DNA from: an uncultured delta proteobacterium
GTDB lineage: Bacteria > Desulfobacterota > Syntrophia > Syntrophales > UBA2185
Assembly: GCA_963729715.1 (NCBI GenBank)
Contig: CAVSPA010000009.1
Coordinates: 1 to 64,000, forward strand
Direction of reading: 5' to 3'
Length of the DNA stretch: 64,000 nucleotides
The notes under the pieces were generated by a model that was given only the letters and a program-made list of their open reading frames with translations, did no database searches and was not told the origin of the DNA. The translations under genes were made by a program, and so were the position numbers. This document shows, piece by piece, positions 9,502-58,507 of the stretch (positions are counted from its first letter, which is position 1; the number at the start of each line of letters is the position of its first letter).

Positions 9502-9517
9502 TGCATCCTTTGTACCA
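9502..9517 (-). promoter_or_regulatory. sigma54 -24/-12 promoter of SDR-abfD operon
   Basis: TGGTACAAAGGATGCA, GG-N10-GC. Confidence 0.7.
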
Positions 9518-11765: not shown

Positions 11766-11814
11766 TTACCAAGTCCCCCTGAGGAAATTTCATCCTGCAA
11801 AGATGAACATCATG

Positions 11815-11853
11815 TGTTCCATAACGGAACATATAATGTTCTATTATGGAAAC
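11815..11853. promoter_or_regulatory. Tandem putative bEBP activator sites
   Basis: TGTTCCATAACGGAACA and TGTTCTATTATGGAAAC, 22 bp apart. Confidence 0.7.
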
Positions 11854-11940
11854 CTCCAAAAATCACAGGAAAGGAAGAAATGCAAGCGAAAAATATAATA
11901 TTTAATAAACACAATGACATAATGAGATGAGATGGCTTGA

Positions 11941-11956
11941 GGGCATAAAAGATGCA
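11941..11956 (+). promoter_or_regulatory. sigma54 -24/-12 promoter of the MFS-ACAD operon
   Basis: GGGCATAAAAGATGCA, GG-N10-GC. Confidence 0.7.
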
Positions 11957-12234
11957 GCCACACGGAGAAATTTCATTTTAAGGACAAGAATTGCCAGGTG
12001 ACACTAGAATGTACCTGGAGAGATTACAGTTAATGGCGAGGCCTTCATTGTCTAGAATGACTGGATGCTTTTTATTTACAGAGGGGCAAGAAAATTCTGT
12101 TTTGCGGAAGGCGTAATCAGAATATCCGCATTTTTTTGTCCGGTTTTCGTGAAGAAGTAATGATGAAATTTTTCATGTGACGGTAAGAACCTATTAGATG
12201 TTTATTGAAGTGAGATAGAAAGGAGGGAAGGATA

Positions 12235-13500
12235 ATGTCAATTGAGGAAAAAGAAAAAATCATCGGTACTAATAAAAACGCTAAATGGGTGGTGCTGTCT
12301 GGGACCTCACTGGCTTACATGTTCGATGCAACCGATTTTCTAGTCCTTGCATTGGGAATCCCATTGCTCATGAAGTCTTTGGGATTGACCTTGGTCGAAG
12401 CCGGTGCTGTTGCATCTTCTACAATGTTCGGGGCTGCCATCGCCAGTTTTATTTGGGGACCGATCATGGATAAGGTGGGTCGCAAAAAGGCCTTGGCCTT
12501 TATCCTTACTTGGTTCGGCATCTGGACTTTTATATGTGGACTTTCTCAGAATTATACACAATTGCTTATTTTTAGATTTCTTTGTGGGCTCGGTCTCGGA
12601 GGCGTATGGGCCATATGCGGCACAATGATAACGGAATTTTTCCCGGCTAACCAGAGAGCCAAGAGCACATCCGTAATACAGAGCTTTTGGGCTGTCGGAT
12701 ACGGCGTTGCCATTGGAATACAGATCTGGCTTGTGCCTATTTTTGGATGGCAAGGCCTATTCTTCGGCGGGTCAGCAGCCATTTTAGTTGCTATATATAT
12801 TTATTTCTTTGTCCCGGAATCTCCTGCCTGGCTTAAAATTCACCAAGAAAGAGCTCACGAAAAGACTAAAACCTTATCCCAAGCGGCAGAAAAAAAAGCT
12901 GCTGAGAAATGGACGGTACTTTTTAAAGGCGATAACTTGAAGCCGACCATCCTTGCAACCCTGCTCAGTATTTTTTTGATGATGGAATACTGGGGCTCCG
13001 CTACATGGATTCCAGCTTATCTTGCCCAAGTGCGTGGCCAGAATGTAAAGGCCATGAGCGGATACCTCCTTTATTTTAACGTATTTGGGTTTTTCGGATA
13101 TTACTTATATGGCTGGTTTGCTGACAAAGTCGGCAGGAGATGGAATTTTATTATCGGTGGTATTGTAGGAGCTGTTCTTACAATCGTTTGGATTAAACAG
13201 AGCTCCGCAGCGGGTGTATTCTGGGTTGGTATGGCTTACGCCTTTTTTAGTTATGGAGTCTTCGGCCCATGGGGGGCGTTCGTTGCCGAACAGTTCAACG
13301 ATGCCCGTTATCGTGGAACTGGAACGTCTATCGCATACGGTTGCGGAAGAGTCGCTACCGTTATAATCCCTGTAGTCCTGGGTGCCGTAGCTACTAAATT
13401 TGATTTGGGAATCGCTATCGGGTGTGTAGCTGCATTTTTTGCCTTGACTGCGGTGACAGCATTTTTCATGAGAGAAACAAAAGATATGGTATTTAAATAA
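12235..13500 (+). CDS. MFS transporter (carboxylate/aromatic acid type)
   Basis: About 12 TM segments; GPIMDKVGRK, GWFADKVGRR, VPESP. Confidence 0.93.
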   Translation: MSIEEKEKIIGTNKNAKWVVLSGTSLAYMFDATDFLVLALGIPLLMKSLGLTLVEAGAVASSTMFGAAIASFIWGPIMDKVGRKKALAFILTWFGIWTFICGLSQNYTQLLIFRFLCGLGLGGVWAICGTMITEFFPANQRAKSTSVIQSFWAVGYGVAIGIQIWLVPIFGWQGLFFGGSAAILVAIYIYFFVPESPAWLKIHQERAHEKTKTLSQAAEKKAAEKWTVLFKGDNLKPTILATLLSIFLMMEYWGSATWIPAYLAQVRGQNVKAMSGYLLYFNVFGFFGYYLYGWFADKVGRRWNFIIGGIVGAVLTIVWIKQSSAAGVFWVGMAYAFFSYGVFGPWGAFVAEQFNDARYRGTGTSIAYGCGRVATVIIPVVLGAVATKFDLGIAIGCVAAFFALTAVTAFFMRETKDMVFK

Positions 13501-13625: not shown

Positions 13626-14786
13626 ATGGATTTCAATTTCAGTGAAGATCACATCATGTTGAGGGAAAGCGTTCGCAACTTTGCCGCAAAGGAAATCTGG
13701 CCCATCGCCGAGGAGATCGATGAAGAGGATAAGTGGCCCGATGGCATGTGGCAGAAACTGGCAAACCTAGGAGTCATGGGGATTACCGTCGATGAGGAGT
13801 ATGGTGGCGCCGGAGCGGACCTGCTTTCCGCGGTCATCGTGCTGGAGGAGCTTTCAAAGGCCAGCCCGGCCGTCGCACTGTCCTGGGGGGCCCATGCCAA
13901 TTTGTGCTGCAACAATCTGAACCACAACGCAAACTCCGAGCAGAAGAGGAAATACCTCCCGCCCCTTTGCTCCGCACAGCACATTGGGGCGCTCGGTCTC
14001 ACCGAGCCCAATGCGGGTTCGGACGCGGTGAATATCCAGACTATGGCGGTAAGGAAGGGCGACCATTATGTTGTGAACGGGACCAAGATGTTTATCACGA
14101 ACGGGACGCAGGCAGACACGATCGTCCTTTATGCAAAAACAGACAGGGAAAAGGGGGCGAAAGGCATCACAGCTTTTATCTTGGACACAAAAACTCCGGG
14201 GTTCTCTGTTTCCAAGAAATTGAAAAAATTAGGCCACCGTGGTTCGTCGACTGCCGAACTCATTCTGGAGGATTGCAGGATTCCAGCCGAGAATGTCATC
14301 GGAGAGGAAAATGCCGGGATCCGGGTCATGATGTCCGGTCTTGACGTGGAAAGGGCTTTCTACGCCGGAGAACCCATCGGGATCGCAGAAACATGTCTCG
14401 AACTCTCACTGAAATACGCACGGGAGCGGGTTCAGTTCGGAAAACCGATCGGCGCATTTCAGCTCATCCAGGCAAAGCTTGCAGACATGTACACCCAAAT
14501 TGAAGCCGGGAAAATGCTCTGCTATAAGGCGGCCATGCTCGCTGACCAAGCTAGAAAAGGCGGAAAGGGAACGGAGATCCATAAACTGGCAGCAGCATCA
14601 ATTCTTTTTAACGCGGAAATGGCTCATCGTATAGCCGATCAAGCTGTACAGATCCATGGTGGTTATGGCTACATGCTCGAATACCCTGTGCAGCGCTTCC
14701 TTAGGGACTCAAAGCTAATTGAGATCGGCGCCGGTACTTCTGAGATTCGGCGCCTCATCATCGGCAGAGAGCTCCTGAAAATGTGA
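13626..14786 (+). CDS. Acyl-CoA dehydrogenase (isovaleryl-CoA DH-like)
   Basis: LTEPNAGSD, GTKMFITN, GLDVERA, GGYGY, EIGAGTSEI. Confidence 0.93.
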   Translation: MDFNFSEDHIMLRESVRNFAAKEIWPIAEEIDEEDKWPDGMWQKLANLGVMGITVDEEYGGAGADLLSAVIVLEELSKASPAVALSWGAHANLCCNNLNHNANSEQKRKYLPPLCSAQHIGALGLTEPNAGSDAVNIQTMAVRKGDHYVVNGTKMFITNGTQADTIVLYAKTDREKGAKGITAFILDTKTPGFSVSKKLKKLGHRGSSTAELILEDCRIPAENVIGEENAGIRVMMSGLDVERAFYAGEPIGIAETCLELSLKYARERVQFGKPIGAFQLIQAKLADMYTQIEAGKMLCYKAAMLADQARKGGKGTEIHKLAAASILFNAEMAHRIADQAVQIHGGYGYMLEYPVQRFLRDSKLIEIGAGTSEIRRLIIGRELLKM

Positions 14787-14795
14787 GGGAAGGTG

Positions 14796-15260
14796 ATGGG
14801 AAGAGAATTCGAATATCTCGATGATTATGCTGTCGGCGACAAATTCGTCTCTCCGGCAAGGACGATCACCGAAACGGATATCGTAAACTTTGCCGCATTC
14901 ACAGGGGATTGGCACCCGCTGCATACCAATGTTGAATATGCGGCGAAGACGCCTTTCAAAGAGAGAATCGCCCACGGCATGTTGACCCTGTGCGTGGGGA
15001 TGGCCCTGCCTTTCCGGTTGGGGATGTATTCGAGCATCCTTCCACGTTCTTTCATTGCCTTTTACGGGATGGAGTCTGTTCGCTTCACTGCTCCGACGAA
15101 GATCGGGGATACGATTCACTGCGAGATGGAAGTTACGGAGATCGTCGATAAAGGAAAAGGCAGGGGTGTTTTAACCACACAAAATCTGATCATGAATCAG
15201 AGAGGCGAAACATTGGCATCCTATGTTACCAAGGTACTGTGCGGAAAGAAGCCCGCATAG
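14796..15260 (+). CDS. MaoC-family (R)-enoyl-CoA hydratase
   Basis: FAAFTGDWHPLH...IAHG. Confidence 0.92.
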   Translation: MGREFEYLDDYAVGDKFVSPARTITETDIVNFAAFTGDWHPLHTNVEYAAKTPFKERIAHGMLTLCVGMALPFRLGMYSSILPRSFIAFYGMESVRFTAPTKIGDTIHCEMEVTEIVDKGKGRGVLTTQNLIMNQRGETLASYVTKVLCGKKPA

Positions 15261-15473
15261 CCTTGATGGACAGTATCCGGCTGTACTCGAGCTTTTATGG
15301 GAAAATGGAATGGCAACAAAGGAGGAAGACTTTCAAGGCTCCTGTCCGGCCTATGGCAAATTGCTAACCAGCAGTACGGTTCGTAGGTTGAAAAGATATG
15401 GAGGTCACTATAAAGGCGCTTCTGATGGGAAGCGAAGACGTATTTTGAGAAATTACTAAAAGGAGAAGAGCAC

Positions 15474-15950
15474 ATGGGCGTAACATCTGTTGAATTGGGA
15501 AACACGGGTACTCTGATGTATCCAAGTCGTGTAAAACTGCCATGTACCTGGCACGTCGGAACAACAGGCAGCAGGTTCTATATGGAATTGAAGGACAACT
15601 GCCAAATTTGGGGCACAAAATGCCCCCAATGCGATTTCGTATATGTGCCTCCAAAATCAACCTGCCCGCGATGCTTCAGCGACATCAACGAGTGGATAGA
15701 GATCGGGAGAGTCGGGACTTTACTGACATACACTCAGGTTCATTATTCAGTTCCCGGTATCCAGCCGGAGAAGCCACCATATTTTCTCGGCATTATAAAG
15801 CTGGACGGTGCTAGCACGGGTCTAGTTCATCTTCTGGGCGAAGTAGATATCGCGGAACTCAACACCGGGATAAGGATGCAAGCCGTATTTCGCAAGAAAC
15901 GGGAGGGAAACTATCTGGATATCAAATATTTCCGTCCGGTCAAATCTTAA
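15474..15950 (+). CDS. DUF35 Zn-ribbon/OB-fold protein
   Basis: CPQC...PP...CPRC followed by OB fold. Confidence 0.9.
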   Translation: MGVTSVELGNTGTLMYPSRVKLPCTWHVGTTGSRFYMELKDNCQIWGTKCPQCDFVYVPPKSTCPRCFSDINEWIEIGRVGTLLTYTQVHYSVPGIQPEKPPYFLGIIKLDGASTGLVHLLGEVDIAELNTGIRMQAVFRKKREGNYLDIKYFRPVKS

Positions 15951-15989
15951 GCGTTCTAAAGTAAATAGAATCTAACCAGGAGGACAGCT

Positions 15990-17126
15990 GTGAATAAAGT
16001 AGCGATTATTGGTACAGCGCAGACAAAGTATCAAAAGGACAATCCGGCATCACGCGCCGAAATGGCCTTTGAAGTTACCAGCAAGGCGCTGGAAGATGCC
16101 GGACTGACAATTAAGGATGTAGATAACACTGTGACGCTTTGCAATGATTACTGGGATGGACGCACGATATCCTGCATAGCCCTTACGGAGGCGACCGGCT
16201 CTGATAAGGTACATACCACCAATATTTCAGGAGATGGTGCATATGGTGCCCTGATGGGCATGATGCGGATTTTATCAGGCCATTTTAAAATTTCGCTCGT
16301 AGTTGCAGAAAGCAAGGGATCAGAATCAGTCCCCGGCATAATCACGAACGCCATGTTCGATCCTATTTACGAACGCATGCTGGGAATCGACGCCGTCAGT
16401 TCGGCCGCCCTGCAGGCGCGGAGGTACATGTCCAAGTATGCTCCGACCGTAGAACAATTCGCCATGGTATCGGTCAAAAATCATAAGAATGCGAAGAACA
16501 ACCCGTATGCTCATTTGCCCATGGATATTACTGTCGAAGATGTGATGAACTCAAAAGTTCTGGCGGACCCCATAAAGCTTTACGACAGTTCGCCCGTTTC
16601 CGATGGAGCCTGTGCCCTGATACTGGCCGAAGAAAGCGTGGCCATGGAAAAATGTCAAAAACCGGTCTGGATAAAGGGCGTGGGAGCATCAACCGACTTT
16701 TATCACCTGGGTGATCGGGATCTGGCAGAAAGTGAGTCTTTGATATCTGCGGCTAAAAAAGCGTATGCCATGGCAGGAATATCCGCTCCATTGAAAGAAA
16801 TCGATGTAGCCGAAGTCTATGACGCTTTTTCCTATATGGAGCTCATGTGGATGGAAGGGCTGGGACTGGTGGAACGAGGCAAGGCCGGCTCTGCAATCGA
16901 GAAAGGGTTAACGCAGATGAACGGTTCCTTGCCGATCAACCCCTCGGGTGGAGTGCTGTCGTCTCATGCGATACTGGTGGCCGGACTAGCTAGGATAGCA
17001 GAAGCAGCGTTGCAGTTAAGAGGAGAGGCTGGAGCCCGGCAAGTGGAAGGGGTCAGCACGGCTTTGGCACACGGCACTGTGGGTGCCTGCGGGCAGGGTC
17101 ACTGCGTATTCATACTTGGCAGGTAA
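15990..17126 (+). CDS. SCP-x-type thiolase-fold protein, Ltp4-like
   Basis: NPYAH, SDGA, INPSGG; no nucleophilic Cys; GDGAYG segment as in Ltp4. Confidence 0.85.
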   Translation: MNKVAIIGTAQTKYQKDNPASRAEMAFEVTSKALEDAGLTIKDVDNTVTLCNDYWDGRTISCIALTEATGSDKVHTTNISGDGAYGALMGMMRILSGHFKISLVVAESKGSESVPGIITNAMFDPIYERMLGIDAVSSAALQARRYMSKYAPTVEQFAMVSVKNHKNAKNNPYAHLPMDITVEDVMNSKVLADPIKLYDSSPVSDGACALILAEESVAMEKCQKPVWIKGVGASTDFYHLGDRDLAESESLISAAKKAYAMAGISAPLKEIDVAEVYDAFSYMELMWMEGLGLVERGKAGSAIEKGLTQMNGSLPINPSGGVLSSHAILVAGLARIAEAALQLRGEAGARQVEGVSTALAHGTVGACGQGHCVFILGR

Positions 17127-17160
17127 ATATCCAAATAGGACCAAATATAAGGAGCGACAA

Positions 17161-18327
17161 ATGGGAGAGAGAGTAGCAATCGTCGGAGTAGGACAGACAC
17201 ACCATAAATCGAAAAATCTTGAATGCTGCGGTCAAGAGTTAATTAATATAGCTGTAAGAAGAGCGCTTGCCAGTGCAGAGCTTACTATGAAGGACATTGA
17301 TGCTATTGTCCTTGGCAATATGGACCTGTTTGAGATGATTAACCACACCGATATGTGGAGCGTGGACGGGTCGGGCGCCTACATGAAACCGATCATGAAA
17401 ATATGTACGGGAGGAGAAACGGGCAGTTCTACAGGGCATGCAGCTTTCTTTCATGCAGCATCCGGTCTGTTCCCTACAGTGCTGGCTATCGGCTGGGAAC
17501 AGAACTCGCAGTCCGATACGACCGCTGCCATTGCAACTCACTGTGATCCAATCGTTGAGCGTGATTTCTATGCTGGCGCCATAGGAGGGCTTGCCGCTAC
17601 ATACACCGCTTATATGGGAAAACACGGGGCCACAGAAGAAGACGCTGCCATGGTCTCAGTGCGGGACCATAACAATGCGGCTCTCTATAATCCTTACGCA
17701 CACCTACGAACCAAGATCACCATCGAAGACGTCATGAAGTCACCCTATATCTCCTATCCGTTGAAGATGCTCGATATGTGTCCCAGGAGTGACGGCGCCT
17801 GTGCTGTGATCTTTGCTGAGGAAAGAATGGCCAAGAAGATCTGCGCCAAGCCCGCTTGGGTAATCGGGCTTGGCAACAGCCATCCTCAGACGTATATCTC
17901 CGATGGGATCGGATCCACAGATTTGGTATCTCTACGGATTGCTGCGAGTCAGGCTTATAAAATGACGGGAATAAACAACCCTGTGGAAGAGATTGATGTG
18001 GCGGAGCTGTATTTACCTGCATCCACGACCGGCGTTGCATGGATGGACGCCTTGCAGTTCTGTCCTGAAGGCGGGGCTCCCAAGTTTATCAGGAGCGGCA
18101 TTACCGAGATGGGCGGAAAGTTGCCCATCAATCCCTCGGGCGGTGTAATGGCAACGAATCCTATCGGCGCAACAGGACTGATCAGAATCGGGGAAGCAGC
18201 GTTGCAGGTGATGGGCAGGGCAGAAACTCGCCAGGTTGACGGGGCCAAAGTCGCTATAGCTACAGGATTCGGCGGACATTTTTGGTCCGAAGTGACCATC
18301 ATCAGTTCGTCTCCCTATTTAGGTTAA
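17161..18327 (+). CDS. SCP-x-type thiolase-fold protein, Ltp3-like
   Basis: KPIMKICTGG, CPRSDGACA, NPIGATGLIR; AAGGAG RBS. Confidence 0.85.
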   Translation: MGERVAIVGVGQTHHKSKNLECCGQELINIAVRRALASAELTMKDIDAIVLGNMDLFEMINHTDMWSVDGSGAYMKPIMKICTGGETGSSTGHAAFFHAASGLFPTVLAIGWEQNSQSDTTAAIATHCDPIVERDFYAGAIGGLAATYTAYMGKHGATEEDAAMVSVRDHNNAALYNPYAHLRTKITIEDVMKSPYISYPLKMLDMCPRSDGACAVIFAEERMAKKICAKPAWVIGLGNSHPQTYISDGIGSTDLVSLRIAASQAYKMTGINNPVEEIDVAELYLPASTTGVAWMDALQFCPEGGAPKFIRSGITEMGGKLPINPSGGVMATNPIGATGLIRIGEAALQVMGRAETRQVDGAKVAIATGFGGHFWSEVTIISSSPYLG

Positions 18328-18346
18328 ATTCAGGAGGTAGCTAATC

Positions 18347-18814
18347 ATGAAGAATATAAAGCTTTTGGACATAACTCGCACATTCGAAATGCCCTTCAAC
18401 TATCACGCGGGCTTCAATTACAGCAAGTTGCTAAAAGAACTGAGAGACAACAAGCGGATATTCGGCATAAAGTGCTCCAAATGTCATAAGGTCTATGTGC
18501 CGCCGCGAATCGTATGCCGCGACTGTTTCCTCAAGATGGAGGAATTTGTGCCAGTGAGCGACGAAGGCAAGCTCGTTGCTTTCTCGGTCTGCAGCATCCC
18601 CTATACCGACCCCAATACCGGAGAACCGAAGAAGCTCCCGTTCACTGTGGCGTATATAAATTTGGATGGCACGGATTCGAATATCATGCATTGTTTGGAC
18701 GAGTTGGACGAAGCGAAGATCCGGACGGGTATGAAGGTGAAAGCCGTATTCAGCGAAGAAAGGACGGGCGACTACTTCTCAGACATCATGCACTTTAAGC
18801 TGATTAGCGGTTGA
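18347..18814 (+). CDS. DUF35 Zn-ribbon/OB-fold protein
   Basis: CSKC...PPR..CRDC. Confidence 0.9.
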   Translation: MKNIKLLDITRTFEMPFNYHAGFNYSKLLKELRDNKRIFGIKCSKCHKVYVPPRIVCRDCFLKMEEFVPVSDEGKLVAFSVCSIPYTDPNTGEPKKLPFTVAYINLDGTDSNIMHCLDELDEAKIRTGMKVKAVFSEERTGDYFSDIMHFKLISG

Positions 18815-19068
18815 GGTCACAGGAAAGTTTTCAGGGGGCCTTTATCGTGCCCCGTTGTTCCTTATGAATGATACCCTCTTTGCTGCTCAAATTCGAAAGC
18901 AGTATTTCAGAACGGCACTGCAGACGCCTGTGCAGTGTTAAGAGAGTTTACGCAGGATGAGCTTAAGGGTCTATCGGATGGGGGATTTGAGGGTGACCAG
19001 AAATTATTGCGGTGAAGGCAGCATTTTCCGCTTTTGGAAATTAAAAATTTAAAGAAAGGAATTCAGGC

Positions 19069-20211
19069 ATGTCAAAGCGAGTCGCAATAGTCACGGTAGC
19101 ACAGAATGCAGGGGCTGAGTCAAAAGACAATTTCTACGATCAGGCCTACCGGGTCACTAAAGAGACTCTGGACAAAGCGGGTCTAAGCAGGGAAGAGATT
19201 GGCACCATTGTCAGCGCATCCTCCGATGTCTTCCACGGAGGTATCTCCTGTGCCAATTCCTATTATTGGGAAACCACGGGGGGATTCCTGAAAAATGCGT
19301 CGCGACAGGACGGGGAATCCCTTTTTGCCTTATTCTATGGAGCCATGCGCATCATGGCAGGCGTTTATGATACGGCGCTGGTGATCGGCCTTTGCAAAGG
19401 GTCGGAAAATCCTCCCAATGATCAGTGCACGCTCATGTTTTCAGATCCCTTCTATCAGAGGACGCTAGGTTTAAATGAAACGATCGCGGCGGCCATGCAG
19501 ATGCATTTGTACATGAAGCTTTGCGGCGTTTCCTTGGAACAGTGCGCCAAGGTGGCCGTAAAAAATCTGAGCAACGGTTTAAGGAACCCTTACGCTCACC
19601 GGAAAGGTCGATACACGCTGAAGGATGTCCTGGAGTCAGAGCGGGTTGCCGGTTCAGTTACCAGTCTGCAGGTGGCTCCGAAATCGGAGGGGATGGTGGC
19701 TATGCTCCTCGCTTCGGAAAAGAAGGCTAAAGAATTGACGGATAAGCCGGTGTGGCTGAAAGGATTCGGCAGCTCCATTGATAGTTATAATCTCGGCGAC
19801 AGGGACCTCTTGGACGGGCAATTGAAAAAAGCAGCCCTTCGGGCTTACAAGATGGCCGGCATCAAGGACCCCCGGAAGAGCATCGATCTTGCGGAGGTGT
19901 GCGAGCCTTATGCTTTTCAGGAGCTCCTGTGGCTGGAAGATCTGGGCTTTTGCGGTCGAGGAGAAGGAGGAAAGCTGATCGACAGCGGGGAGACGGAATT
20001 GAGCGGCGAGTTCCCTGTCAATCCGTCCGGAGGCGTATTGTCGAATAACCCCTATGTTTCGAGGGGCCTTCAGAGAGCCGTCGAGGCATTTCTTCAGATC
20101 AGAGGCGAAGCCGGCGAAAGACAGGTCCGGAAGAAAGTAAAAACCGCATTAGCGCACGGCACACACGGCTTTGCGGGTCAGTGCCATGCAGTGGCCATTT
20201 TAGGTAGTTAG
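19069..20211 (+). CDS. SCP-x-type thiolase-fold protein, Ltp4-like
   Basis: NPYAH, VNPSGG, ALAHGT..GQCH; paralogue of 15990. Confidence 0.85.
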   Translation: MSKRVAIVTVAQNAGAESKDNFYDQAYRVTKETLDKAGLSREEIGTIVSASSDVFHGGISCANSYYWETTGGFLKNASRQDGESLFALFYGAMRIMAGVYDTALVIGLCKGSENPPNDQCTLMFSDPFYQRTLGLNETIAAAMQMHLYMKLCGVSLEQCAKVAVKNLSNGLRNPYAHRKGRYTLKDVLESERVAGSVTSLQVAPKSEGMVAMLLASEKKAKELTDKPVWLKGFGSSIDSYNLGDRDLLDGQLKKAALRAYKMAGIKDPRKSIDLAEVCEPYAFQELLWLEDLGFCGRGEGGKLIDSGETELSGEFPVNPSGGVLSNNPYVSRGLQRAVEAFLQIRGEAGERQVRKKVKTALAHGTHGFAGQCHAVAILGS

Positions 20212-20223
20212 GAGGTTATCGAT

Positions 20224-21390
20224 ATGGGGAGACCAGTCGCAATTATAGGGGTTGGACAAACCAAGCACGGAAGGCGCAACGATGTCTGCTATCCTGATTT
20301 GGTGAGAGAGGCGGTCATGGCCGTGTTCGAGGATACGGGACTAAATCCCGATGATATCGACGGCGTCGTGTCCGGGACAATGCCCTCGATGATGGAAGGG
20401 GTTGCCCTGACCCACTTTTATTTTGCCGATGCCATGCAAGCCGCAGGAAAACCGATCCTAAAGACGGAAACCTGCGGATCGACGGGAGTGTCGATCGCGC
20501 ACACGGCTTATTACTGGGTCGCTTCCGGTCAGGCGGATATCATCCTCGCCGTAGGGCATGAAAAGATGTTCGAAGGGGATAGCCAGGCGACGATGACGAC
20601 GGTCATGGAGCCCTTTTATCAGAGGCCATTTCTCGCCGGCGCCCCGGGTGTCTTTTCAATGCAGTCGCGGATGTGGGTTTGGCGTTATGGCATCGACGAA
20701 GCAAAGCTCAGGGACGCCGCGGCTTACGTATCCGTCACCCATCATGACGATGCTTTTGATAACCCTTATGCGCATATTAAAATCAAAGTCACCATGGATG
20801 AGGTGAAGAATGCGAAAGTCATCACGTATCCGGTCAGGCTTCTCGATGTGTGCCCCAATTCCGACGGAGCCTGTGCCGTGATTTTTGCTTCCGAAAAAAT
20901 AGTGAAAAAATTGGGACGGAAACCCGCCTGGGTGACGGGGGTCGGATACCGGGGGGATGAGTATTTCTTTGGGGATAGCGATAAGACCGTCTGGGAGAGC
21001 GCCATTCAGGCCGCTAAGCAGGCGTATGACGAAGCGGGGATCACGAATCCCCGAAAGGAATTGGATGTGGCGGAGATATACAACCCGTTCACCTACCAGG
21101 AGATGTTGTTCTACGAATGTTTCGGCTTCTGCGACTTCGGCCAGGCGCCCGACCTTGTTCTAAATGGAACATTTACCCGGAAAGGCGAACTTCCCTGTGA
21201 TCCCTCGGGAGGCACCTTGTGCACTAACCCCATCGGTGCCACGGGACTCATTCGGACTGCTGAAGCGGCTCTTCAAGTCATGGGAAAGGCCGGAGCGCAT
21301 CAGATACCCGGCGCGAAGCTTGCTTTAAGCCACGCGATGGGTGGTGTCTGCCAGTTTAACGGAATCATGATCCTTGGATCGAAATTATAA
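20224..21390 (+). CDS. SCP-x-type thiolase-fold protein, Ltp3-like
   Basis: ADAMQAAGKP, CPNSDGACA, NPIGATGLIR. Confidence 0.85.
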   Translation: MGRPVAIIGVGQTKHGRRNDVCYPDLVREAVMAVFEDTGLNPDDIDGVVSGTMPSMMEGVALTHFYFADAMQAAGKPILKTETCGSTGVSIAHTAYYWVASGQADIILAVGHEKMFEGDSQATMTTVMEPFYQRPFLAGAPGVFSMQSRMWVWRYGIDEAKLRDAAAYVSVTHHDDAFDNPYAHIKIKVTMDEVKNAKVITYPVRLLDVCPNSDGACAVIFASEKIVKKLGRKPAWVTGVGYRGDEYFFGDSDKTVWESAIQAAKQAYDEAGITNPRKELDVAEIYNPFTYQEMLFYECFGFCDFGQAPDLVLNGTFTRKGELPCDPSGGTLCTNPIGATGLIRTAEAALQVMGKAGAHQIPGAKLALSHAMGGVCQFNGIMILGSKL

Positions 21391-21405
21391 TCAACGGAGG
21401 TAAAG

Positions 21406-21867
21406 ATGACGAAGGAATATAAAACCCTGAAGACAGAGGTTAGACTGCCATACGAATTGTCCTATGGAGCCACCTGGACGCGTTTCTTTGAAGGATTGCG
21501 GAACAAAAAGATCTATGGGTCCAAATGCAAAAAATGCGGCAGAGTTCTTGTGCCGGCCAGGACCTTCTGTCCCCGCTGCTTCGTCGACACCGATGAATGG
21601 ATCGAGGTTTCCCAGGGGGGGACGGTAAGCTCGTACGTTTATGTGAACATGGCTTACTTTGGACAACCCGTCCAACCTCCTTTCATTGCGTCGTTGATCA
21701 AGCTGGAGGGGACCGATGTGAATTTCCTTCATCTGATCGCGGGATTCGATCTGCAAAACTTCGACCATGTCGAAAAGACGATGAGGAAAAACATGAAAGT
21801 CAGTGCCGTGTGGAACAATGACCGAACGGGCAATATCTTTGACATCAAATATTTTGAGCCGGTTTAG
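21406..21867 (+). CDS. DUF35 Zn-ribbon/OB-fold protein
   Basis: CKKC...CPRC. Confidence 0.9.
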   Translation: MTKEYKTLKTEVRLPYELSYGATWTRFFEGLRNKKIYGSKCKKCGRVLVPARTFCPRCFVDTDEWIEVSQGGTVSSYVYVNMAYFGQPVQPPFIASLIKLEGTDVNFLHLIAGFDLQNFDHVEKTMRKNMKVSAVWNNDRTGNIFDIKYFEPV

Positions 21868-22026
21868 AAAACGCGAAGACAGGGCCGTTTCTGAAGGATA
21901 TTTCTTTCATTAAATTCCCGTGGGGATGAAGCTCCAGACTCCATTCCTGCCTGAGCCGAAGTATCGTTAAAATCATTTCCACGGGAACGCAACAATCGAT
22001 ATTTAACAAATAGGGGGAGGGACGAA

Positions 22027-23361
22027 ATGAGTTGGCAAGATACTTATAGAAGCCGCTTAACATCGGCTCAAGAAGCTGCAAAAATAGTTAAATCGGGTGA
22101 TTGTTTTTGGACTCCTCTTGCGTTGGGCCAGCCATCCTCTTTGATCATTGATGCCATTGCGGATCGCAGGGATGAGCTGAAGGATGTGGAATTTATCAGT
22201 TGCTTAACATTCAGGCCTTATAAGATTTATAATCCTGAATATCGCAACGTGTTTAAGTTGGTCTTCGGTTTTCTCGGCACCCCCATAACCATTCCGTTCG
22301 GTAAATCGGAATGGGCGGAATACCTGCCTCTGCAGGCTTCGGAATCTGGCACGGTCAAATGCGCTCATCGGAAAAGGACCTTCAATCGACGTATGGGAAT
22401 GGTGATGCAGGTCACGCCACCGGATAATCATGGATTCGTGAACATCGGGCTTGATGCATTTTATACAGAAGGTGTCATGAATCAGTGCGATTGGATCATT
22501 GCCGAAGTTAATCCAAGGATGCCGAGGACCTATGGTCAGACGAATTTCCATGTTTCCCGGTTTGACGCGTTCGTAGAAAATCCTAACAATATCCCAGCCG
22601 TCCCAACACCGAAGGCGACGAAGATTGAAATCAAGATGGCGGAAAACGTCGTTAGTCTTCTGAAAGATCGCGACTGCGTCCAGATCGGCATTGGCGCTGT
22701 GCCGGCCATGATCAGCAAGCTGCTGGAACACTCGGGGCTGAAGGATCTGGGGATTCATACGGAAATGGCGCCGGCCGGGAGCGACCGATTGGTGGAAAAA
22801 GGAGTGGTCACATGCAAATACAAGAAACTCAACCCTGGAAAGATCGTAATGGCTTTTTCCATGGGTGATGAAGAACTGTATAATTGGATAGCTGAGAATC
22901 CCATGTGCGAATTTCGTCCAACATTTTATTCCAATAGAATTGACGTAATCGCACAAGAAAATAACGTCGTAGCGATTAACGGATCCATTGAGGTAGACCT
23001 CACTGGCCAGATTGTATCCGAATCCATTGGCGACGTGATGCGCACTGGAACAGGAGGGCAGCTAGACTTTACAATAGGTTCTTTCTGGTCCCCGGGCGGG
23101 CGGGCGATTAACCTCGTACCCTCAACGACGATGAACGATACAGTTTCGAGAATAACGCCCTATATCACAGAAGGTGCGAGGGTGACCGTGCCCCGCCACT
23201 ATGCGGGATATATTGTGACCGAATATGGAATAGCCGATCTCTACGGACGAACGGAAACAGAGCGGGCTGAAGAACTCATCAAAATCGCCCATCCCAAATT
23301 TCGAGAAGAGCTTGAAAAGGGTGCGCGCAAGAGGGGCTTGCTAAAGAAGAAAATATTTTAA
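22027..23361 (+). CDS. Acetyl-CoA hydrolase/transferase family (4-hydroxybutyrate CoA-transferase-like)
   Basis: EVNPRMPRT, QIGIG, DLGIHTEM, GTGGQLDF, VTEYG. Confidence 0.92.
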   Translation: MSWQDTYRSRLTSAQEAAKIVKSGDCFWTPLALGQPSSLIIDAIADRRDELKDVEFISCLTFRPYKIYNPEYRNVFKLVFGFLGTPITIPFGKSEWAEYLPLQASESGTVKCAHRKRTFNRRMGMVMQVTPPDNHGFVNIGLDAFYTEGVMNQCDWIIAEVNPRMPRTYGQTNFHVSRFDAFVENPNNIPAVPTPKATKIEIKMAENVVSLLKDRDCVQIGIGAVPAMISKLLEHSGLKDLGIHTEMAPAGSDRLVEKGVVTCKYKKLNPGKIVMAFSMGDEELYNWIAENPMCEFRPTFYSNRIDVIAQENNVVAINGSIEVDLTGQIVSESIGDVMRTGTGGQLDFTIGSFWSPGGRAINLVPSTTMNDTVSRITPYITEGARVTVPRHYAGYIVTEYGIADLYGRTETERAEELIKIAHPKFREELEKGARKRGLLKKKIF

Positions 23362-23397
23362 AATCTGTAATAAAGTAGAGATCCTTGAGAAGGAGCG

Positions 23398-24546
23398 ATG
23401 ATGATACCAGAATTTACTTCGGAGCAGAAATTGCTTCAGGAAACGATACGGAAATTCGTCGAGAAAGAGGTTGCGCCACTCGCATACAAGCTTGACAGGG
23501 ATGAGAGGTTTCCATCTGAAGCCTTCAAACGGCTGGGAGAAATGGGACTTATGGGAATCACAGCTCCTGTGGAATACGGTGGCGCCGGCGTCGGATATAC
23601 GGAGATGTGCATCATAGGAGAAGAATTGGCCGTTGGTTGTTGTTCCACCTCTGCCACCTGGGCAAATCATGTGGATCTTTGCATCGACAATATTCGGCGG
23701 AATGCAACCGAGGCTCAAATGAAGAAATACCTGCCGGTTCTTTGCTCCGGCCAGAAGCTAGGCGGGTTGGCTATGACGGAAACTTTGGCCGGATCGGATG
23801 TTATGTCCATGAGGCTCCGGGCGGAGCGAAAGGGCGATTTCTACATCCTCAATGGGACAAAAATTTTTATTACTCAAGGACCGACGGCAGATCTGTTTGT
23901 GGTTTATGCAAAAACAGCACCGGAGAAGGGCACTCACGGGATTTCGGCTTTTATCGTCGAAAAGGAATTCCCAGGCTTTCTGCGTGGAAAAAAGTTCGAA
24001 AAAATGGGCTGGCGCGGGTCCCCGACCGGAGAGCTGATTTTCGAGGACTGTCAGGTGCCCGTGGAAAATCTGCTCGGGGAGGAAGATCGGGGCGCCATGA
24101 TTCTTATGAGCGGACTGAACACGGAGAGGGTCGTCATGGGGGCCATTGCACTCGGAATTGCTCGGGGAGCCTATGAAGTTGCGTTGAAGTACGCAAAGGA
24201 AAGAGTTCAATTCGGAAAACCAATATCGGCGTTTCAGCTGATCCAAGCGAAGCTCGCCGACATGGCTATGGAGATCGAACTTTCAAGGCTTATTACGTAT
24301 GAAGGGGCAATTATGGCCGACAAGGGACTGCACCGCGAGATGAACCTCGTTGCCTCTTACGCCAAGCTCTATACTTCAGAAGTCTCAATGCGCGTCACTA
24401 CGGAGGCCGTCCAGATCCTCGGAGGTTACGGTTACATGAAAGAATTCCCCGTGGAAAGAATGATGCGGGATGCGAAACTGATGACCATCGGCGGAGGGAC
24501 ATCGGAGATTCAACGCATCATCATTGCTCGTGAGATTTTGAAATGA
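23398..24546 (+). CDS. Acyl-CoA dehydrogenase
   Basis: MTETLAGSD, GLNTERV, GGYGY, IGGGTSEI. Confidence 0.93.
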   Translation: MMIPEFTSEQKLLQETIRKFVEKEVAPLAYKLDRDERFPSEAFKRLGEMGLMGITAPVEYGGAGVGYTEMCIIGEELAVGCCSTSATWANHVDLCIDNIRRNATEAQMKKYLPVLCSGQKLGGLAMTETLAGSDVMSMRLRAERKGDFYILNGTKIFITQGPTADLFVVYAKTAPEKGTHGISAFIVEKEFPGFLRGKKFEKMGWRGSPTGELIFEDCQVPVENLLGEEDRGAMILMSGLNTERVVMGAIALGIARGAYEVALKYAKERVQFGKPISAFQLIQAKLADMAMEIELSRLITYEGAIMADKGLHREMNLVASYAKLYTSEVSMRVTTEAVQILGGYGYMKEFPVERMMRDAKLMTIGGGTSEIQRIIIAREILK

Positions 24547-24829
24547 TCTGAAAGAGCATTTCCGAGCTTATGCCGGATATCCTCTATTCATAGTGATCTG
24601 GGCGGAACATTAACTGCTGACTTTCAGTGATCAAGTGGGAGCTGACCCGAGGCAGGAGAAATGTGATTGAGGGTTAGTTCTTTCGAAAGACTTGGTGTTC
24701 CATCGTAATTGATTCGCAGTGAAGTCAGATTGTGGAGGATTCGGTCTGATGAAACGGAGTCAATATTCGCCGATTCACGATTGATCCCGTCGATGTGATG
24801 ACCTCCAATTTGAGGGAGGAGAGTTGATT

Positions 24830-25574
24830 ATGACGGTCGTTTGTCATGTAGAGAGCAAAATTGCCATCATCACCATTAATAACCCGCCAATGAACACGTT
24901 GGACAGGACAGTGATGGATGGAATCCGGACGTGTTTCAACCAGATAAAACAGAACGAAACGGTGCGGGCAGTCCTTGTGACTGGAGAGGGTCGTTCATTT
25001 GTGGCGGGGGCAAATATTAAAGAGTTTTCTTCGTGGACTCTAGACGAGGTGGAGGATTTGACGGATAAAGGACAGCGCATTTTCATGCAGATCGAGAATT
25101 TTCCTGTGCCAGTCATCGCAGCCATTAACGGATTCGCCCTTGGCGTGTGATTTGCTAATTGCTTCCGAAAAGGCGAATTTGGGCTTGCCCGAGGTGAAAC
25201 TAGGCATCATTCCAGGTTACGGTGGCACGGAACGACTATGCCGGACCATTCCTATCGGCAAGGCAAGAAAGATGATTTACACGGGGGAGATCATCGGCGC
25301 GTCTGAGGCTATGGAAATCGGTCTGGTTGAAAGCATTGTCGCCGCTGATAAGTTAATGGACGTGGCAATGGATATTGCGAGAAGAATAGCGGTCAACGCA
25401 CCCATAGCGGTTCGTGGCGCAAAGAAATCCATCAATATGGGGCGCAATCTTTCAATAGAGCAAGGCATGGCTGTTGAGCTTGGTGTTGTCCGAAGGTGTT
25501 TTGACACAGAGGACAGGAGAGAAGGCATAGATGCCTTTATAAATAGAAGAAAACCCATTTTTAAGAATATATAA
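24830..25574 (+). pseudogene. Enoyl-CoA hydratase (crotonase), internal deletion and frameshift
   Basis: INGFALG jumps to LACDL in another frame at about 25140; GGxE segment missing. Confidence 0.88.
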
Positions 25575-26088: not shown

Positions 26089-27132
26089 ATGAAAGCGGCA
26101 AGATTTTATGGGGCTAATCAACCCCTCAGGATTGAAGAAATCCCGATGCCCTCGGTAGGTCCTGACGATGTTCTGATTGAGGTAAAAGCGGCTGGCATAT
26201 GCGGCTCGGACCTTCACATCGTTTTTGAAGGGTCAGTGCCACCGGGTTTCATTCCGATGACATTGGGCCATGAGTCGAGCGGCATCGTTGCTAGGACCGG
26301 TGGCAACGTAACCGACTGGAAATTTGGCGACCGGGTTGTCATCAATTCCATCGTGAGTTGCGGAATATGTTACAACTGCCGCACCGACGGGGAAGCGATC
26401 TGCGATCGGTGCAAATTCATCGGCATTCATCTGAATGGCGCCTTTGCTGAATTCATGGCCATCCCGGCAAGAAACCTTTTGAAACTTCCGGACAATATCC
26501 CCTTCGACCAAGGTGCAGTCATTGCGGACGCCGTCGCCACTCCGCATCATGCCATCGTTAAGAGAGGTAAGTTGAGAATCGGGGAAACGGTTGCGATCAT
26601 CGGATGCGGAGGTCTGGGGATTCATGCCGTGCAGCTCTGTAAAATTGGAGGAGCTTCAAGGATCATTGCCGTGGATTTGGATGACGGGATTTTGGAAAGA
26701 GCCATGAGAGCCGGGGCAACGGATAGCGTGAACAGCAAAACCGAAAACGCCGTCCGCCGGATCAGGGAAATAACATTGGGGGCCGGTGTCGATCTGGCTT
26801 TGGAATTTGTCGGGCGCGCTGAAACGATCGCAACCGGAATAAGAATCATGCGCGCCGGAGGGCGCTTAGTCGTCAGCGGTATCGGGTCGGAAAAGATCGT
26901 CCTTCCACCGCCGTCACTATTCGTATGGAAAGAATTGAGTCTCATCGCTGCCTTTGGTTTCGACAATGACGATATCTCCAGACTCATCGAAATGGCGGCG
27001 CAGGGAATACTGGATCTATCGGGGTCCATTTCGGAGAGATTTCCCCTCGATGCGGTGAACACAGCCCTGGAACATCTTAGGGACAAGGTCGGAAATCCTG
27101 TCAGAATCATGATCGATCCATTGACGTCGTGA
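26089..27132 (+). CDS. Zn-dependent alcohol dehydrogenase (MDR)
   Basis: GICGSD, GHE, CGICYNC...C, GCGGLG. Confidence 0.95.
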   Translation: MKAARFYGANQPLRIEEIPMPSVGPDDVLIEVKAAGICGSDLHIVFEGSVPPGFIPMTLGHESSGIVARTGGNVTDWKFGDRVVINSIVSCGICYNCRTDGEAICDRCKFIGIHLNGAFAEFMAIPARNLLKLPDNIPFDQGAVIADAVATPHHAIVKRGKLRIGETVAIIGCGGLGIHAVQLCKIGGASRIIAVDLDDGILERAMRAGATDSVNSKTENAVRRIREITLGAGVDLALEFVGRAETIATGIRIMRAGGRLVVSGIGSEKIVLPPPSLFVWKELSLIAAFGFDNDDISRLIEMAAQGILDLSGSISERFPLDAVNTALEHLRDKVGNPVRIMIDPLTS

Positions 27133-48112: not shown

Positions 48113-48150
48113 AATAAATAAAGCATGATACATGAAAAGAGGTTTGCGGA

Positions 48151-58502: not shown

Positions 58503-58507
58503 AGAAG

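Follow-up and report, generated by a model that had tools for sequence, protein, structure and literature searches.

Cysteine-less thiolase-fold pairs with DUF35 partners in uncultured anaerobes: a candidate lyase for branched acyl-CoA esters

What reaction could a pair of thiolase-fold proteins catalyse when neither has the nucleophilic cysteine of a thiolase? The question is raised by a gene cluster at positions 13,626 to 24,546 of a 64,000-nucleotide stretch of DNA from an uncultured delta proteobacterium of the Syntrophales (the window: positions 1 to 64,000, forward strand, of contig CAVSPA010000009.1 in GenBank assembly GCA_963729715.1). Two such pairs, ThlA-ThlB and ThlA'-ThlB', are encoded there among three DUF35 proteins (D35a, D35b and D35c) and between two acyl-CoA dehydrogenases (ACADs). 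From sequence comparison, and at a probability of roughly 0.45, we propose that the first pair and its two DUF35 partners form a module whose core is a heteromeric retro-aldol C-C lyase on the SCP2-thiolase fold. The cluster genes, with the transporter gene ahead of them, are the following.

12235..13500, + strand: MFS transporter (Pfam MFS_1, E 2.9e-56; TIGR00895, 218 bits against a cut-off of 418), which these scores place in the aromatic acid/H+ symport family, though only at the level of the subfamily
13626..14786, + strand: ACAD1, ACAD of isovaleryl-CoA dehydrogenase type (PDB matches, motifs)
14793..15260, + strand: MaoC-type (R)-specific enoyl-CoA hydratase (Pfam MaoC_dehydratas, E 1.3e-27; PDB 5cpg, E 5.5e-17)
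15474..15950, + strand: D35a, DUF35 protein, first gene of module 1 (Pfam zf-ChsH2 and OB_ChsH2_C)
15990..17126, + strand: ThlA, A-type Cys-less SCP2-thiolase-like subunit (Pfam/NCBIfam, alignments)
17161..18327, + strand: ThlB, B-type Cys-less subunit (alignments, start re-read)
18347..18814, + strand: D35b, DUF35 protein, last gene of module 1 (Pfam)
19069..20211, + strand: ThlA', A-type subunit of module 2 (Pfam, alignments)
20224..21390, + strand: ThlB', B-type subunit of module 2 (alignments)
21406..21867, + strand: D35c, DUF35 protein of module 2 (Pfam, alignment)
22027..23361, + strand: CoA-transferase of 4-hydroxybutyrate CoA-transferase type (AcetylCoA_hyd_C, E 2.2e-56; PDB 9vag, E 1.4e-88, and 3eh7, E 1.4e-87)
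23398..24546, + strand: ACAD2, second ACAD of isovaleryl-CoA dehydrogenase type (PDB matches, motifs)

The listing of open reading frames (ORFs) and the Pfam and NCBIfam scans cover 40 window ORFs. They place all eleven genes from ACAD1 to ACAD2 on the + strand, in the order already given by an earlier reading of the letters alone (hereafter the sequence-only reading): ACAD, MaoC, DUF35, ThlA, ThlB, DUF35, ThlA', ThlB', DUF35, CoA-transferase, ACAD. The mechanical ORF of ThlB starts at 17083; since the ATG at 17161 is preceded by AAGGAG and all 120 listed homologues are about 388 residues long, 17161 is the likely start.

Is the catalytic cysteine really missing? The active-site columns were read in HMMER alignments to BbsB, SCP2-thiolase, archaeal thiolase and ST0096, and again in a second alignment that includes canonical thiolases from related loci (described below), which read C / HDCF or HDA / GHP in these columns. 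The cluster's thiolase-fold proteins are 36-43% identical to ThlA. The four read as follows.

ThlA: Cys column G (NISGDG); HDCF motif YDAF; GHP site H (SSHAI)
ThlB: Cys column G (TGGETG); HDCF motif YLPA; GHP site N (TNPIGATG)
ThlA': Cys column S (RQDGES); HDCF motif CEPY; GHP site N (NNPY)
ThlB': Cys column G, with a Cys at -1 (TETCGSTG); HDCF motif YNPF; GHP site N (LCTNPIGATG)

Both alignments thus agree with the sequence-only reading that the canonical nucleophile is absent from all four: the column holds G83 in ThlA, G85 in ThlB, Gly in ThlB' and Ser in ThlA', while the Cys-bearing thiolases of five related loci (L029, L032, L048, L058, L080) align their Cys there. The HDCF motif is replaced in every case, and His is found at the GHP site in ThlA alone, the other three having Asn. 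The reading as an ordinary thiolase pair was rejected. The same reading had noted NPIG in place of GHP in the B types, which holds for ThlB and ThlB' (TNPIGATG); of the A types, ThlA keeps the His and ThlA' reads NNPY.

The replacements are themselves conserved. In ThlA the residues that stand out are D82, G83, Y277-D-A-F, H326, C367, Q369 and C372: D82, G83, A279, F280, C367, Q369 and C372 are each present in 27 of 27 orthologues, and Y277 in 26. In ThlB they are G84-G85, Y284-x-P286 and T332-N333, and G84, G85, Y284, P286, T332 and N333 are each found in 24 of 24 sequences. The Cys of the window's ICTGG in ThlB is not conserved, as ICTGG occurs in only 5 of the best 120 homologues; 96 of the 120 read K(V/L)TTGG.

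Does this pattern resemble that of any thiolase-fold enzyme known to cleave by another route? We compared the proteins with Ltp2, Ltp3/4, Sal and BbsB through NCBIfam scores, PDB ranks and the canonical thiolases of the related loci. SCP2-thiolases read HDCF at this motif and Ltp2, Sal and TbSLP read YDHF, YDCY and YDCF, with a catalytic Tyr at the first position; Tyr294 of the Ltp2 motif acts as base and Tyr344 as acid (PMC12329534). The same paper describes for Sal the residues Tyr302 and Cys304 of YDCY, Gln352 in place of Ltp2 Tyr344, Gly at the position of the thiolase nucleophile, a Tyr-to-Phe variant that is almost inactive, and a dimer with a DUF35 domain on each of its two sides (PMC12329534). 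By spacing, the column of Ltp2 Tyr344 and Sal Gln352 is that of the GHP His, the gap being 50 residues in Ltp2 and Sal and, by count from the alignment, also 50 in zebrafish SCP2-thiolase.

ThlA, ThlB and ThlB' all have Tyr at the first motif position (26/27 ThlA and 24/24 ThlB orthologues). The three therefore share the Gly and Tyr changes common to Ltp2 and Sal. This pattern, Tyr for His with Gly for Cys, agrees with that reported for Ltp2, Sal and TbSLP and supports the retro-aldolase idea of the sequence-only reading. The second residue differs from both precedents. The third motif position holds Ala or Pro and the residue 48-50 positions downstream is His or Asn, never Tyr as in Ltp2; with respect to the Sal dyad, the Tyr is present and the Cys304 position is Ala in ThlA and Pro in ThlB, ThlB' and ThlA'.

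Likeness of residues does not extend to family membership. The NCBIfam lipid-transfer-protein models PRK07937, PRK08256, PRK06059 and PRK07855, whose correspondence to individual Ltp proteins is not stated, give 99-181 bits against cut-offs of 419-469, below the generic thiolase-domain models for the cluster proteins. The BbsB model NF053628 gives 92-161 bits against 750, and the BbsA model NF053627 gives 28-31 bits against 250. By score, ThlA, ThlB and ThlB' belong to none of the Ltp2, Ltp3/4, Sal or BbsB families. AlphaFold2 models of ThlA and ThlB (mean local confidence, pLDDT, 79.8 and 76.8) retrieve matches in fold searches that all have template-modelling (TM) scores of 0.75-0.89; Ltp2 ranks 25th for ThlA and 8th for ThlB, Sal 31st and 41st.

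These scores bear on the idea that the proteins are orthologues of the actinobacterial sterol side-chain enzymes Ltp3/Ltp4 or Ltp2, acting on steroids under anoxia. Wilbrink in 2012 reportedly proposed Ltp3/Ltp4 of Rhodococcus and Mycobacterium, encoded by two adjacent thiolase-like genes, as aldol-lyases for the branched side chain, and we know of no biochemical characterisation of them. Two adjacent thiolase-like paralogues with DUF35 partners do recall ltp3-ltp4, and the logic of ACAD, MaoC and aldolase parallels ChsE-ChsH-Ltp2. Against this stand the lipid-transfer-protein scores far under the NCBIfam cut-offs, with true thiolases ranking higher and no specific sequence affinity to the steroid-cluster proteins; ACADs of short-chain isovaleryl type, unlike the heteromeric ChsE; and a MaoC protein that is small and single-domain. 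Nor were steroid-ring or steroid side-chain marker genes found among the 40 scanned window ORFs, in line with the sequence-only reading, which had seen no steroid-ring genes nearby. Steroid orthology is contradicted at the level of family membership and barely credible, and the description of the two pairs as Ltp3/Ltp4-like was not upheld.

How widely is the arrangement kept, and what is its unit? A scan with ThlB over one genome per species (185,579 species, a collection in which the window's own species has no entry) gave 506 relatives; locus-based counts rest on the best 80 of these, compared with the window proteins. The 80 loci, 55-74% identical to ThlB, are all from metagenome-assembled genomes (MAGs): Dehalococcoidia, other Chloroflexota, Actinomycetota (Geothermincolia, Anoxymicrobiaceae), Deltaproteobacteria, Syntrophales, a spirochaete, Jordarchaeia, Freyarchaeota and Methanolliviera. 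A metagenomic protein set holds 3513 scored homologues of ThlB at E <= 0.001; the best 120 are 59-94% identical, and each one of these with an organism name is a MAG.

The neighbourhood survey suggested along with the sequence-only reading was run for module 1. The flanks are long enough in 57 loci (1.8 kb or more upstream, 0.6 kb or more downstream), and 48 of them contain D35a-ThlA-ThlB-D35b in one order and on one strand (43 by script and 5 by eye, L008, L009, L067, L075 and L076, where mechanical ORF starts overlapped); L015 has no D35a match. Because this tetrad is the recurrent unit in related genomes, the window is best parsed as MaoC, then D35a-ThlA-ThlB-D35b (module 1), then ThlA'-ThlB'-D35c (module 2); its make-up is not a DUF35 gene plus a pair, three times over, but a conserved tetrad followed by an A'-B'-DUF35 set. 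A lost DUF35 gene ahead of ThlA' was also considered and rejected: tblastn of the cluster proteins on 18780-19100 matched only the ends of the flanking genes, with no remnant of a fourth DUF35 in the 18815-19068 gap. In L006, L018 and L021 a third paralogous set, A''-B''-DUF35-DUF35, comes after module 1.

In a quick maximum-likelihood tree (41 rows, root arbitrary), A, A' and A'' form one clade (SH-aLRT 99) and B, B' and B'' another (98), with the Cys-bearing thiolases outside both; on this topology the A/B pairing would be ancient. The B-type signature (Gly; Y-x-P; T-N) is common to B, B' and B'', and the A types diverge (YDAF with H, CEPY with N, SEKF with D). ThlA' and ThlB' have close families of their own at 67-86% identity, the named members being MAGs of Syntrophales, Desulfomonilaceae, Peptococcaceae and Thermodesulfobacteriota.

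The DUF35 proteins are as constant as the pair. D35a, a zinc ribbon with an OB fold and four invariant Cys, has an orthologue at the equivalent position in related loci; of the 75 loci that extend 0.6 kb or more downstream, 61 have a D35b orthologue after ThlB, a script count that is low, since ORF-start artefacts hid at least those of L008 and L009. Each of the two types, D35a and D35b, stays at its own end of the module throughout. D35a, D35b and D35c all keep the four zinc-ribbon Cys (CxxC...CxxC) and match the DUF35 chains of solved thiolase-fold complexes. Three genes of this partner class lie beside thiolase-fold genes, an adjacency kept in those 48 of 57 loci.

Solved systems give an idea of how such parts may be assembled. 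A thiolase-like fold always forms a dimer. TcLtp2-ChsH2(DUF35) (PDB 6ok1) combines an SCP2-thiolase fold without the nucleophilic Cys, a motif Tyr and a zinc-ribbon/OB DUF35 partner, in a pathway that has an ACAD and a MaoC hydratase ahead and in which Ltp2 cleaves a tertiary 3-hydroxyacyl-CoA; it matches the fold of ThlA at TM 0.85 and that of ThlB at 0.78. It differs in being a homodimer with one kind of DUF35, fused to the hydratase, and in its active site, with a YDHF motif and another catalytic Tyr in the GHP column, where the cluster proteins have YDAF or YxPx with His or Asn; its E-values (6e-22 to 2e-26) lie behind those of true thiolases, and the cluster context is non-steroid and anaerobic. 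The bile-acid aldolase CtSal-Shy(DUF35) (PDB 9myr) has Gly at the nucleophile position, a Tyr base and a central dimer with two flanking DUF35, whose zinc site is Cys3His where the cluster's three DUF35 have four Cys. The closest PDB sequence match of ThlA is ST0096 of Sulfolobus tokodaii (PDB 4yzo, E 2.5e-51), which also lacks the Cys (SGSGG) but keeps both His (HDMA, GHP); neither its entry title nor a literature search on the code gave a function.

Two-protein assemblies are known as well. The PhlABC and MucABC acyltransferases (PDB 5m3k, 9vbo) join two thiolase-fold proteins to a DUF35, and their DUF35 and PhlC chains match weakly. PhlA is of KAS III type, PhlC has a catalytic Cys (a CsATase homologue C88S is among the PDB titles) and the reaction is Friedel-Crafts acyl transfer onto phenols without CoA esters; as the KAS III-type partner and the Cys are both absent here, a PhlABC-like acyltransferase was ruled out. 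In the archaeal thiolase/HMG-CoA synthase/DUF35 complex (PDB 6esq; HMG-CoA, 3-hydroxy-3-methylglutaryl-CoA) two thiolase-fold proteins are held by DUF35, and in the ketothiolase/DUF35 assembly of Sulfolobus acidocaldarius further enzymes (MaoC and a short-chain dehydrogenase/reductase, SDR) are held in the same way. The archaeal complexes are among the best fold matches (TM 0.84-0.89). Unlike the Cys-less A/B paralogues, these are condensing systems, described as active ketothiolases, with partners from the thiolase and HMG-CoA synthase families.

The archaeal likeness raises the thought that the modules might condense, by aldol- or Claisen-type C-C formation (for example of acetyl-CoA with a ketone or aldehyde) or in a CoA-dependent, fatty-acid-synthase-like assembly as in S. 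acidocaldarius. There the ketothiolase/DUF35 complex binds an SDR and a MaoC dehydratase, according to 10.1101/2024.07.05.601840, and the window encodes a MaoC protein, an SDR and a medium-chain dehydrogenase. Aldol reactions are reversible, and in many Actinomycetota and Asgard loci module 1 stands without catabolic neighbours. A Claisen condensation by a thiolase, however, requires an acyl-Cys intermediate, for which the Cys is missing; the window context is catabolic (transporter, CoA-transferase, two ACADs), and an ACAD is the commonest neighbour across the related loci (24/80). A condensing role is improbable on this balance.

For the proposed lyase, ThlA and ThlB would dimerise and each would be capped by its own DUF35, giving D35a:ThlA:ThlB:D35b, comparable to the alpha-beta-beta-alpha arrangement of Sal-Shy(DUF35). 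What might it act on? The two ACADs are informative. The five best PDB matches of ACAD1 are all isovaleryl-CoA dehydrogenases (E 3.7e-123 to 1.5e-115, 390-415 bits; the next match, 354 bits), and so are those of ACAD2 (E 9.6e-113 to 9.2e-103, 347-380 bits). In isovaleryl-CoA dehydrogenase the catalytic base is Glu254 on helix G, and Gly or Ala replaces the Glu376 base of the medium- and short-chain enzymes. GLDVER of ACAD1 aligns with GLDLER of the human enzyme (1ivh; the Glu is chain residue 254 by count) and EIGAGTSE is identical; ACAD2 reads GLNTER and IGGGTSE. Both ACADs thus have the Glu254 equivalent together with Gly at the medium-chain Glu376 position and, by sequence, are of isovaleryl-CoA dehydrogenase type, which indicates beta-methyl-branched substrates. 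This fits the tertiary 3-hydroxyacyl-CoAs on which the sequence-only reading had proposed to assay the proteins. The MaoC protein reads TGDWHPLH, which we take to resemble the hydratase-2 motif.

The tertiary alcohol formed by hydrating a 3-methyl-2-enoyl-CoA cannot be oxidised to a ketone, and a lyase between C2 and C3 is needed instead. Steroid degraders meet the same blocked-carbon problem with ChsE-ChsH-Ltp2. Taking this parallel with the logic of dehydrogenation and hydration, we read module 1 as a candidate heteromeric retro-aldol lyase on 3-hydroxy-3-methylacyl-CoAs made by the MaoC hydratase. The sequences show which genes are present, how their order is kept across loci, which residues they carry and of what type the ACADs are; the complex, its activity, the catalytic subunit and the substrate we infer from these. 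The MFS transporter would take up a carboxylic acid and the 4-hydroxybutyrate-type CoA-transferase would make its CoA ester, with acetyl-CoA as a possible donor. An isovaleryl-type ACAD would desaturate the ester to a 3-methyl-2-enoyl-CoA, which the MaoC hydratase would convert to the tertiary 3-hydroxy-3-methylacyl-CoA. The lyase would then split C2-C3 into acetyl-CoA and a ketone or aldehyde, the Tyr that replaces the His of HDCF acting as base on the hydroxyl group. In the simplest route isovalerate would pass through isovaleryl-CoA, 3-methylcrotonyl-CoA and 3-hydroxyisovaleryl-CoA to acetone and acetyl-CoA, and the zinc alcohol dehydrogenase encoded downstream may handle the carbonyl product. 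The order of activation, dehydrogenation, hydration and cleavage without oxidation set out in the sequence-only reading accords with this evidence.

3-Hydroxyisovaleryl-CoA is the simplest candidate substrate in the window, which has no carboxylase; esters like HMG-CoA or citramalyl-CoA are candidates where a carboxylase is encoded nearby. Known enzymes for such compounds, HMG-CoA lyase and citramalyl-CoA lyase, cleave tertiary 3-hydroxy-3-methylacyl-CoAs to acetyl-CoA and a ketone on a TIM barrel, a fold unrelated to that of thiolases, and in itaconate degradation MaoC-family hydratases feed citramalyl-CoA lyase. Neither lyase is encoded among the scanned window ORFs. A full-text literature search, with thin coverage of subscription journals, found no description of a DUF35-A-B-DUF35 module, of a Cys-less thiolase pair in anaerobes or of a lyase from 3-hydroxyisovaleryl-CoA to acetone; the passages checked in a limonene paper and in a paper on acetone in D. 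biacutus make no mention of a Cys-less thiolase-like family.

Do related genomes surround the module with the same functions? Within 6 kb of it, 444 ORFs in the 80 loci were clustered. The recurrent neighbours are ACAD (24 of 80 loci), AMP-ligase (16), SDR (10), crotonase (10), further thiolase-like proteins (10), beta-keto acid cleavage enzyme (BKACE; 9), 3-hydroxyacyl-CoA dehydrogenase (9) and further DUF35 (8). A MaoC gene lies immediately 5' of the module in 17 of the 39 loci with at least 2.5 kb upstream. ACAD1 orthologues of 56-60% identity occur upstream of MaoC and module 1 in five loci: L032, L048, L054 and L068 share the order crotonase, ACAD1 orthologue, AMP-dependent ligase, MaoC, module, and in L029 the ACAD1 orthologue abuts MaoC. 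Adding L079, the isovaleryl-type ACAD pattern is found beside the module in L029, L032, L048, L054, L068 and L079. ACADs of the Dehalococcoidia loci are about 30% identical and differ from that pattern. L009, L010 and L020 encode an acyl-CoA carboxyltransferase no more than 6 kb from the module, and L020 encodes a biotin carboxylase as well.

Some neighbours were noted in their own right. BKACE genes stand beside the module at L009:1488-2429, L010:6911-7837, L020:3415-4284 and L067:13189-14049, and the combination of BKACE and acyl-CoA carboxyltransferase in L009, L010 and L020 is reminiscent of leucine/isovalerate (Liu-type) clusters. Enzymes of aldehydes and alcohols near the module also speak for the lyase reading: besides the window's zinc alcohol dehydrogenase on the + strand, L028 encodes an Fe-ADH and an aldehyde:ferredoxin oxidoreductase just upstream, and L067 has an Fe-ADH just downstream.

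Several of these results weigh against the lyase reading. The isovaleryl-type ACAD accompanies the module in only 6 of 80 loci, and many Actinomycetota and Asgard modules lie amid unrelated genes, with neither MaoC nor ACAD nearby. With a 3-hydroxyacyl-CoA dehydrogenase near the module in 9 loci, ordinary beta-oxidation runs in these clusters too. In the sequence and the fold comparisons alike, true thiolases (BbsB, SCP2-thiolase, archaeal thiolases) rank ahead of Ltp2 and Sal, so the likeness to aldolase residues may have arisen by convergence or mean something else. The known aldolases have a second catalytic residue (the His of Ltp2 YDHF with Tyr344, or Sal Cys304) that is absent here; H326 of ThlA, at the GHP site, is kept in 20 of 27 orthologues and is Asn in the other 7. 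The ThlB-type gene stands alone in 8 of the 57 flanked loci (L031, L040, L044, L046, L049, L056, L071, L077). Seven of these eight are labelled Actinomycetota, Acidimicrobiales, Geothermincolia and Anoxymicrobiaceae among them, and L071 is Candidatus Solincola; L031, L056 and L077 share an accession prefix with loci holding a full or partial module (L034, L043, L052), so at least these three belong to MAGs in which a different contig carries a module. To the same side of the account belong two cysteines of ThlB', one next to the canonical site and one in LCTN: at least 97% of its 120 listed homologues have the TETCG Cys, and the same is true of the YNPF Tyr and of the LCTN Cys.

Those cysteines are the starting point of another reading, which we consider unlikely while giving it real weight: one or both modules, above all module 2, would be thiolases with a displaced catalytic set, and the cluster would run beta-oxidation with DUF35-dependent thiolases like BbsAB. 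On this reading the Cys at -1 in ThlB' would attack a 3-oxoacyl-CoA with the LCTN Cys as acid/base. The benzoylsuccinyl-CoA thiolase BbsAB (PDB 7pxp) is a suggestive precedent, an anaerobic SCP2-type thiolase subunit with a separate DUF35 subunit, and by sequence ThlB' matches BbsB best among PDB entries (E 3.6e-43). The dehydrogenases that beta-oxidation would use are also to hand, as an SDR and a zinc-dependent dehydrogenase in the window and as the SDR and 3-hydroxyacyl-CoA dehydrogenase genes near module 1 counted above. BbsB, however, keeps its Cys and His residues, is a thiolase, and comes as one thiolase gene with one DUF35 gene; the cluster proteins score far below the BbsB and BbsA cut-offs. 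In ThlB' the Cys column is Gly, the His and Cys of HDCF are Tyr and Pro, and the GHP His is Asn, while ThlA, ThlB and most ThlB homologues (the 96 of 120 with K(V/L)TTGG) have no Cys near the site. Canonical Cys/His thiolases are, moreover, encoded separately in L029, L032, L048, L058 and L080, which argues that the module does something other than thiolysis.

Module 2 is the harder case in any event. ThlA' homologues conserve none of Tyr, His and Cys at the three sites, the Tyr position being Cys or variable. With this and the conserved Cys pair of ThlB', module 2 could use other chemistry, and the double retro-aldol pathway of the sequence-only reading is no more than a possibility. As a paralogous set, module 2 may do what module 1 does on another substrate or may provide another step; how it works is less certain than for module 1. 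The bareness of ThlA' also invites the notion that the Cys-less proteins have no catalytic activity of their own and serve as scaffolds or as regulators of other cluster enzymes, inert partner domains being a recognised theme in steroid side-chain hydratases (by the title of PMC11321319). We judge it very improbable: identities of 55-74% are held across phyla and domains, and ThlA and ThlB have many invariant polar residues, unlike a relaxed pseudo-enzyme.

The survey also brought up related genes outside the two modules. Seven of the solitary ThlB-type genes (L031, L040, L044, L046, L049, L056, L077) are 57-59% identical, have no ThlA or DUF35 beside them and adjoin unrelated genes, among them mfd in L044 and L049 and the gene of a phytoene-desaturase-like flavoprotein in L040 and L046; the short ORFs (165-207 residues) upstream of those in L031, L044, L049 and L077 gave no match in a Pfam scan. 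Other Cys-less thiolase-like genes, each followed by a DUF35 gene, lie at L004:15324-16613, L005:13679-14968 and L050:15330-16619, and at L040:17156-18391 and L045:6073-7371; one type reads GGGS / FAPY / THP and another GGGG / HDAY / GHP, resembling ST0096 (PDB 4yzo). Uncultured anaerobes thus seem to hold a varied and unstudied range of Cys-less thiolase-fold proteins linked to DUF35. In a spirochaete MAG (L047:1325-2230) an A'-like thiolase gene is present as three short ORFs, a pseudogene or an assembly error.

The genes on either side of the cluster complete the catabolic part of the window.

6782..8224, - strand: 4-hydroxybutyryl-CoA dehydratase / vinylacetyl-CoA delta-isomerase homologue, AbfD type (Pfam HpaB_N/HpaB; PDB 6vjr, E 2e-164, and 1u8v, E 1e-163)
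8673..9452, - strand: SDR (Pfam adh_short, E 1.8e-61)
9741..11765, - strand: sigma-54-dependent transcriptional activator, divergent from the operon (Pfam Sigma54_activat, E 2.1e-66, and HTH_8)
24824..25574, + strand: crotonase-type enoyl-CoA hydratase, broken into 24824-25150 and 25140-25574 (ECH_1 profile)
26089..27132, + strand: zinc-dependent medium-chain alcohol dehydrogenase (Pfam ADH_N and ADH_zinc_N; PDB alcohol dehydrogenases, E 2.7e-51 and weaker)

The AbfD-type gene and the SDR gene are possible accessory genes. AbfD-type homologues of 38-43% identity also stand beside module 1 in a deltaproteobacterial MAG (L041:4179-5654) and a Methanolliviera MAG (L058:6424-7911), and L041 has a homologue of the sigma-54 activator (45% identical). 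Together with the 4-hydroxybutyrate-type CoA-transferase, the AbfD-type gene gives a hint that the pathway may be entered by a 4-hydroxy or 3-enoyl acid.

Towards its 3' end the cluster appears decayed. The two crotonase ORFs match ECH_1 profile positions 3-101 and 108-249: the first frame ends at GFALGV*, the protein is taken up again at ACDLLIASEK in a different frame, and the profile segment 101-108 is gone. Further downstream, an Acs C-terminal fragment (27398-27961) and a radical-SAM activase fragment (28330-28842) are both truncated.

Between the activator and the MFS gene lies the palindrome ATGTGTTCCATAACGGAACATAT (11812..11834, 9-pair stem). It contains the perfect palindrome TGTTCC-ATAAC-GGAACA and is followed by a similar half-site pair (TGTTCTATTATGGAAAC), the whole spanning window positions 11812-11860; it is a candidate binding site of the activator. 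The sigma-54 promoter pattern TGGCACN5TTGCW with up to 2 mismatches was tried and rejected (32 matches against 30.8 expected); none falls in the 11766-12234 intergenic region, and one match, at 9502-9517 on the - strand, is upstream of the SDR gene. Scans for sigma-70 promoters (24 against 19.3) and terminators (25 against 17.7) were near the shuffled expectation.

The catabolic cluster lies in a transposon-rich region, with mobile-element sets at 68-901, 34934-37208, 39134-40246 and 43103-44338 (rve integrase, IS21-type pair, IS110-type transposase, Mutator-type transposase). An ORF at 5614-6306 with an AbiU2 HEPN domain (Pfam, E 2.6e-20) is a candidate abortive-infection gene. A 1122-residue protein encoded at 31116-34484 on the - strand joins an adenylate/guanylate cyclase domain to a zinc ribbon, AAA_16 and TPR repeats, and 44633-63998 on the + strand encodes a long series of histidine kinases with PAS/GAF domains and of response regulators, together with one HD-domain and one GGDEF protein; the two make up an unusually dense signalling region.

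To our knowledge, thiolase-fold aldolases have so far come only from aerobic steroid side-chain degradation (Ltp2, Sal). The proteins described here point to a lineage of their own, ancient and paired as A and B, in which two DUF35 proteins are dedicated partners. Even if the displaced-cysteine thiolase turned out to be right, the known catalytic range of the fold would widen. If the module is a lyase for tertiary 3-hydroxyacyl-CoAs, it would fill a gap in how anaerobes break down beta-branched acids (products of leucine and isovalerate, isoprenoid acids, methyl-branched dicarboxylates) and offer biocatalysis a reversible, cofactor-free enzyme that forms C-C bonds. A broader proposal, to which we give a rather slim chance, is that the module is an unrecognised lyase widespread in uncultured anaerobes and, with isovaleryl-type ACAD and MaoC, a carboxylase-free and ATP-free way around the beta-methyl block in bacteria and archaea, which in the reverse direction would join acetone, or other ketones and aldehydes, to acetyl-CoA with no ATP spent. 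If true, this would matter for the degradation of leucine-derived and isoprenoid acids by strict anaerobes and for their activation of ketones.

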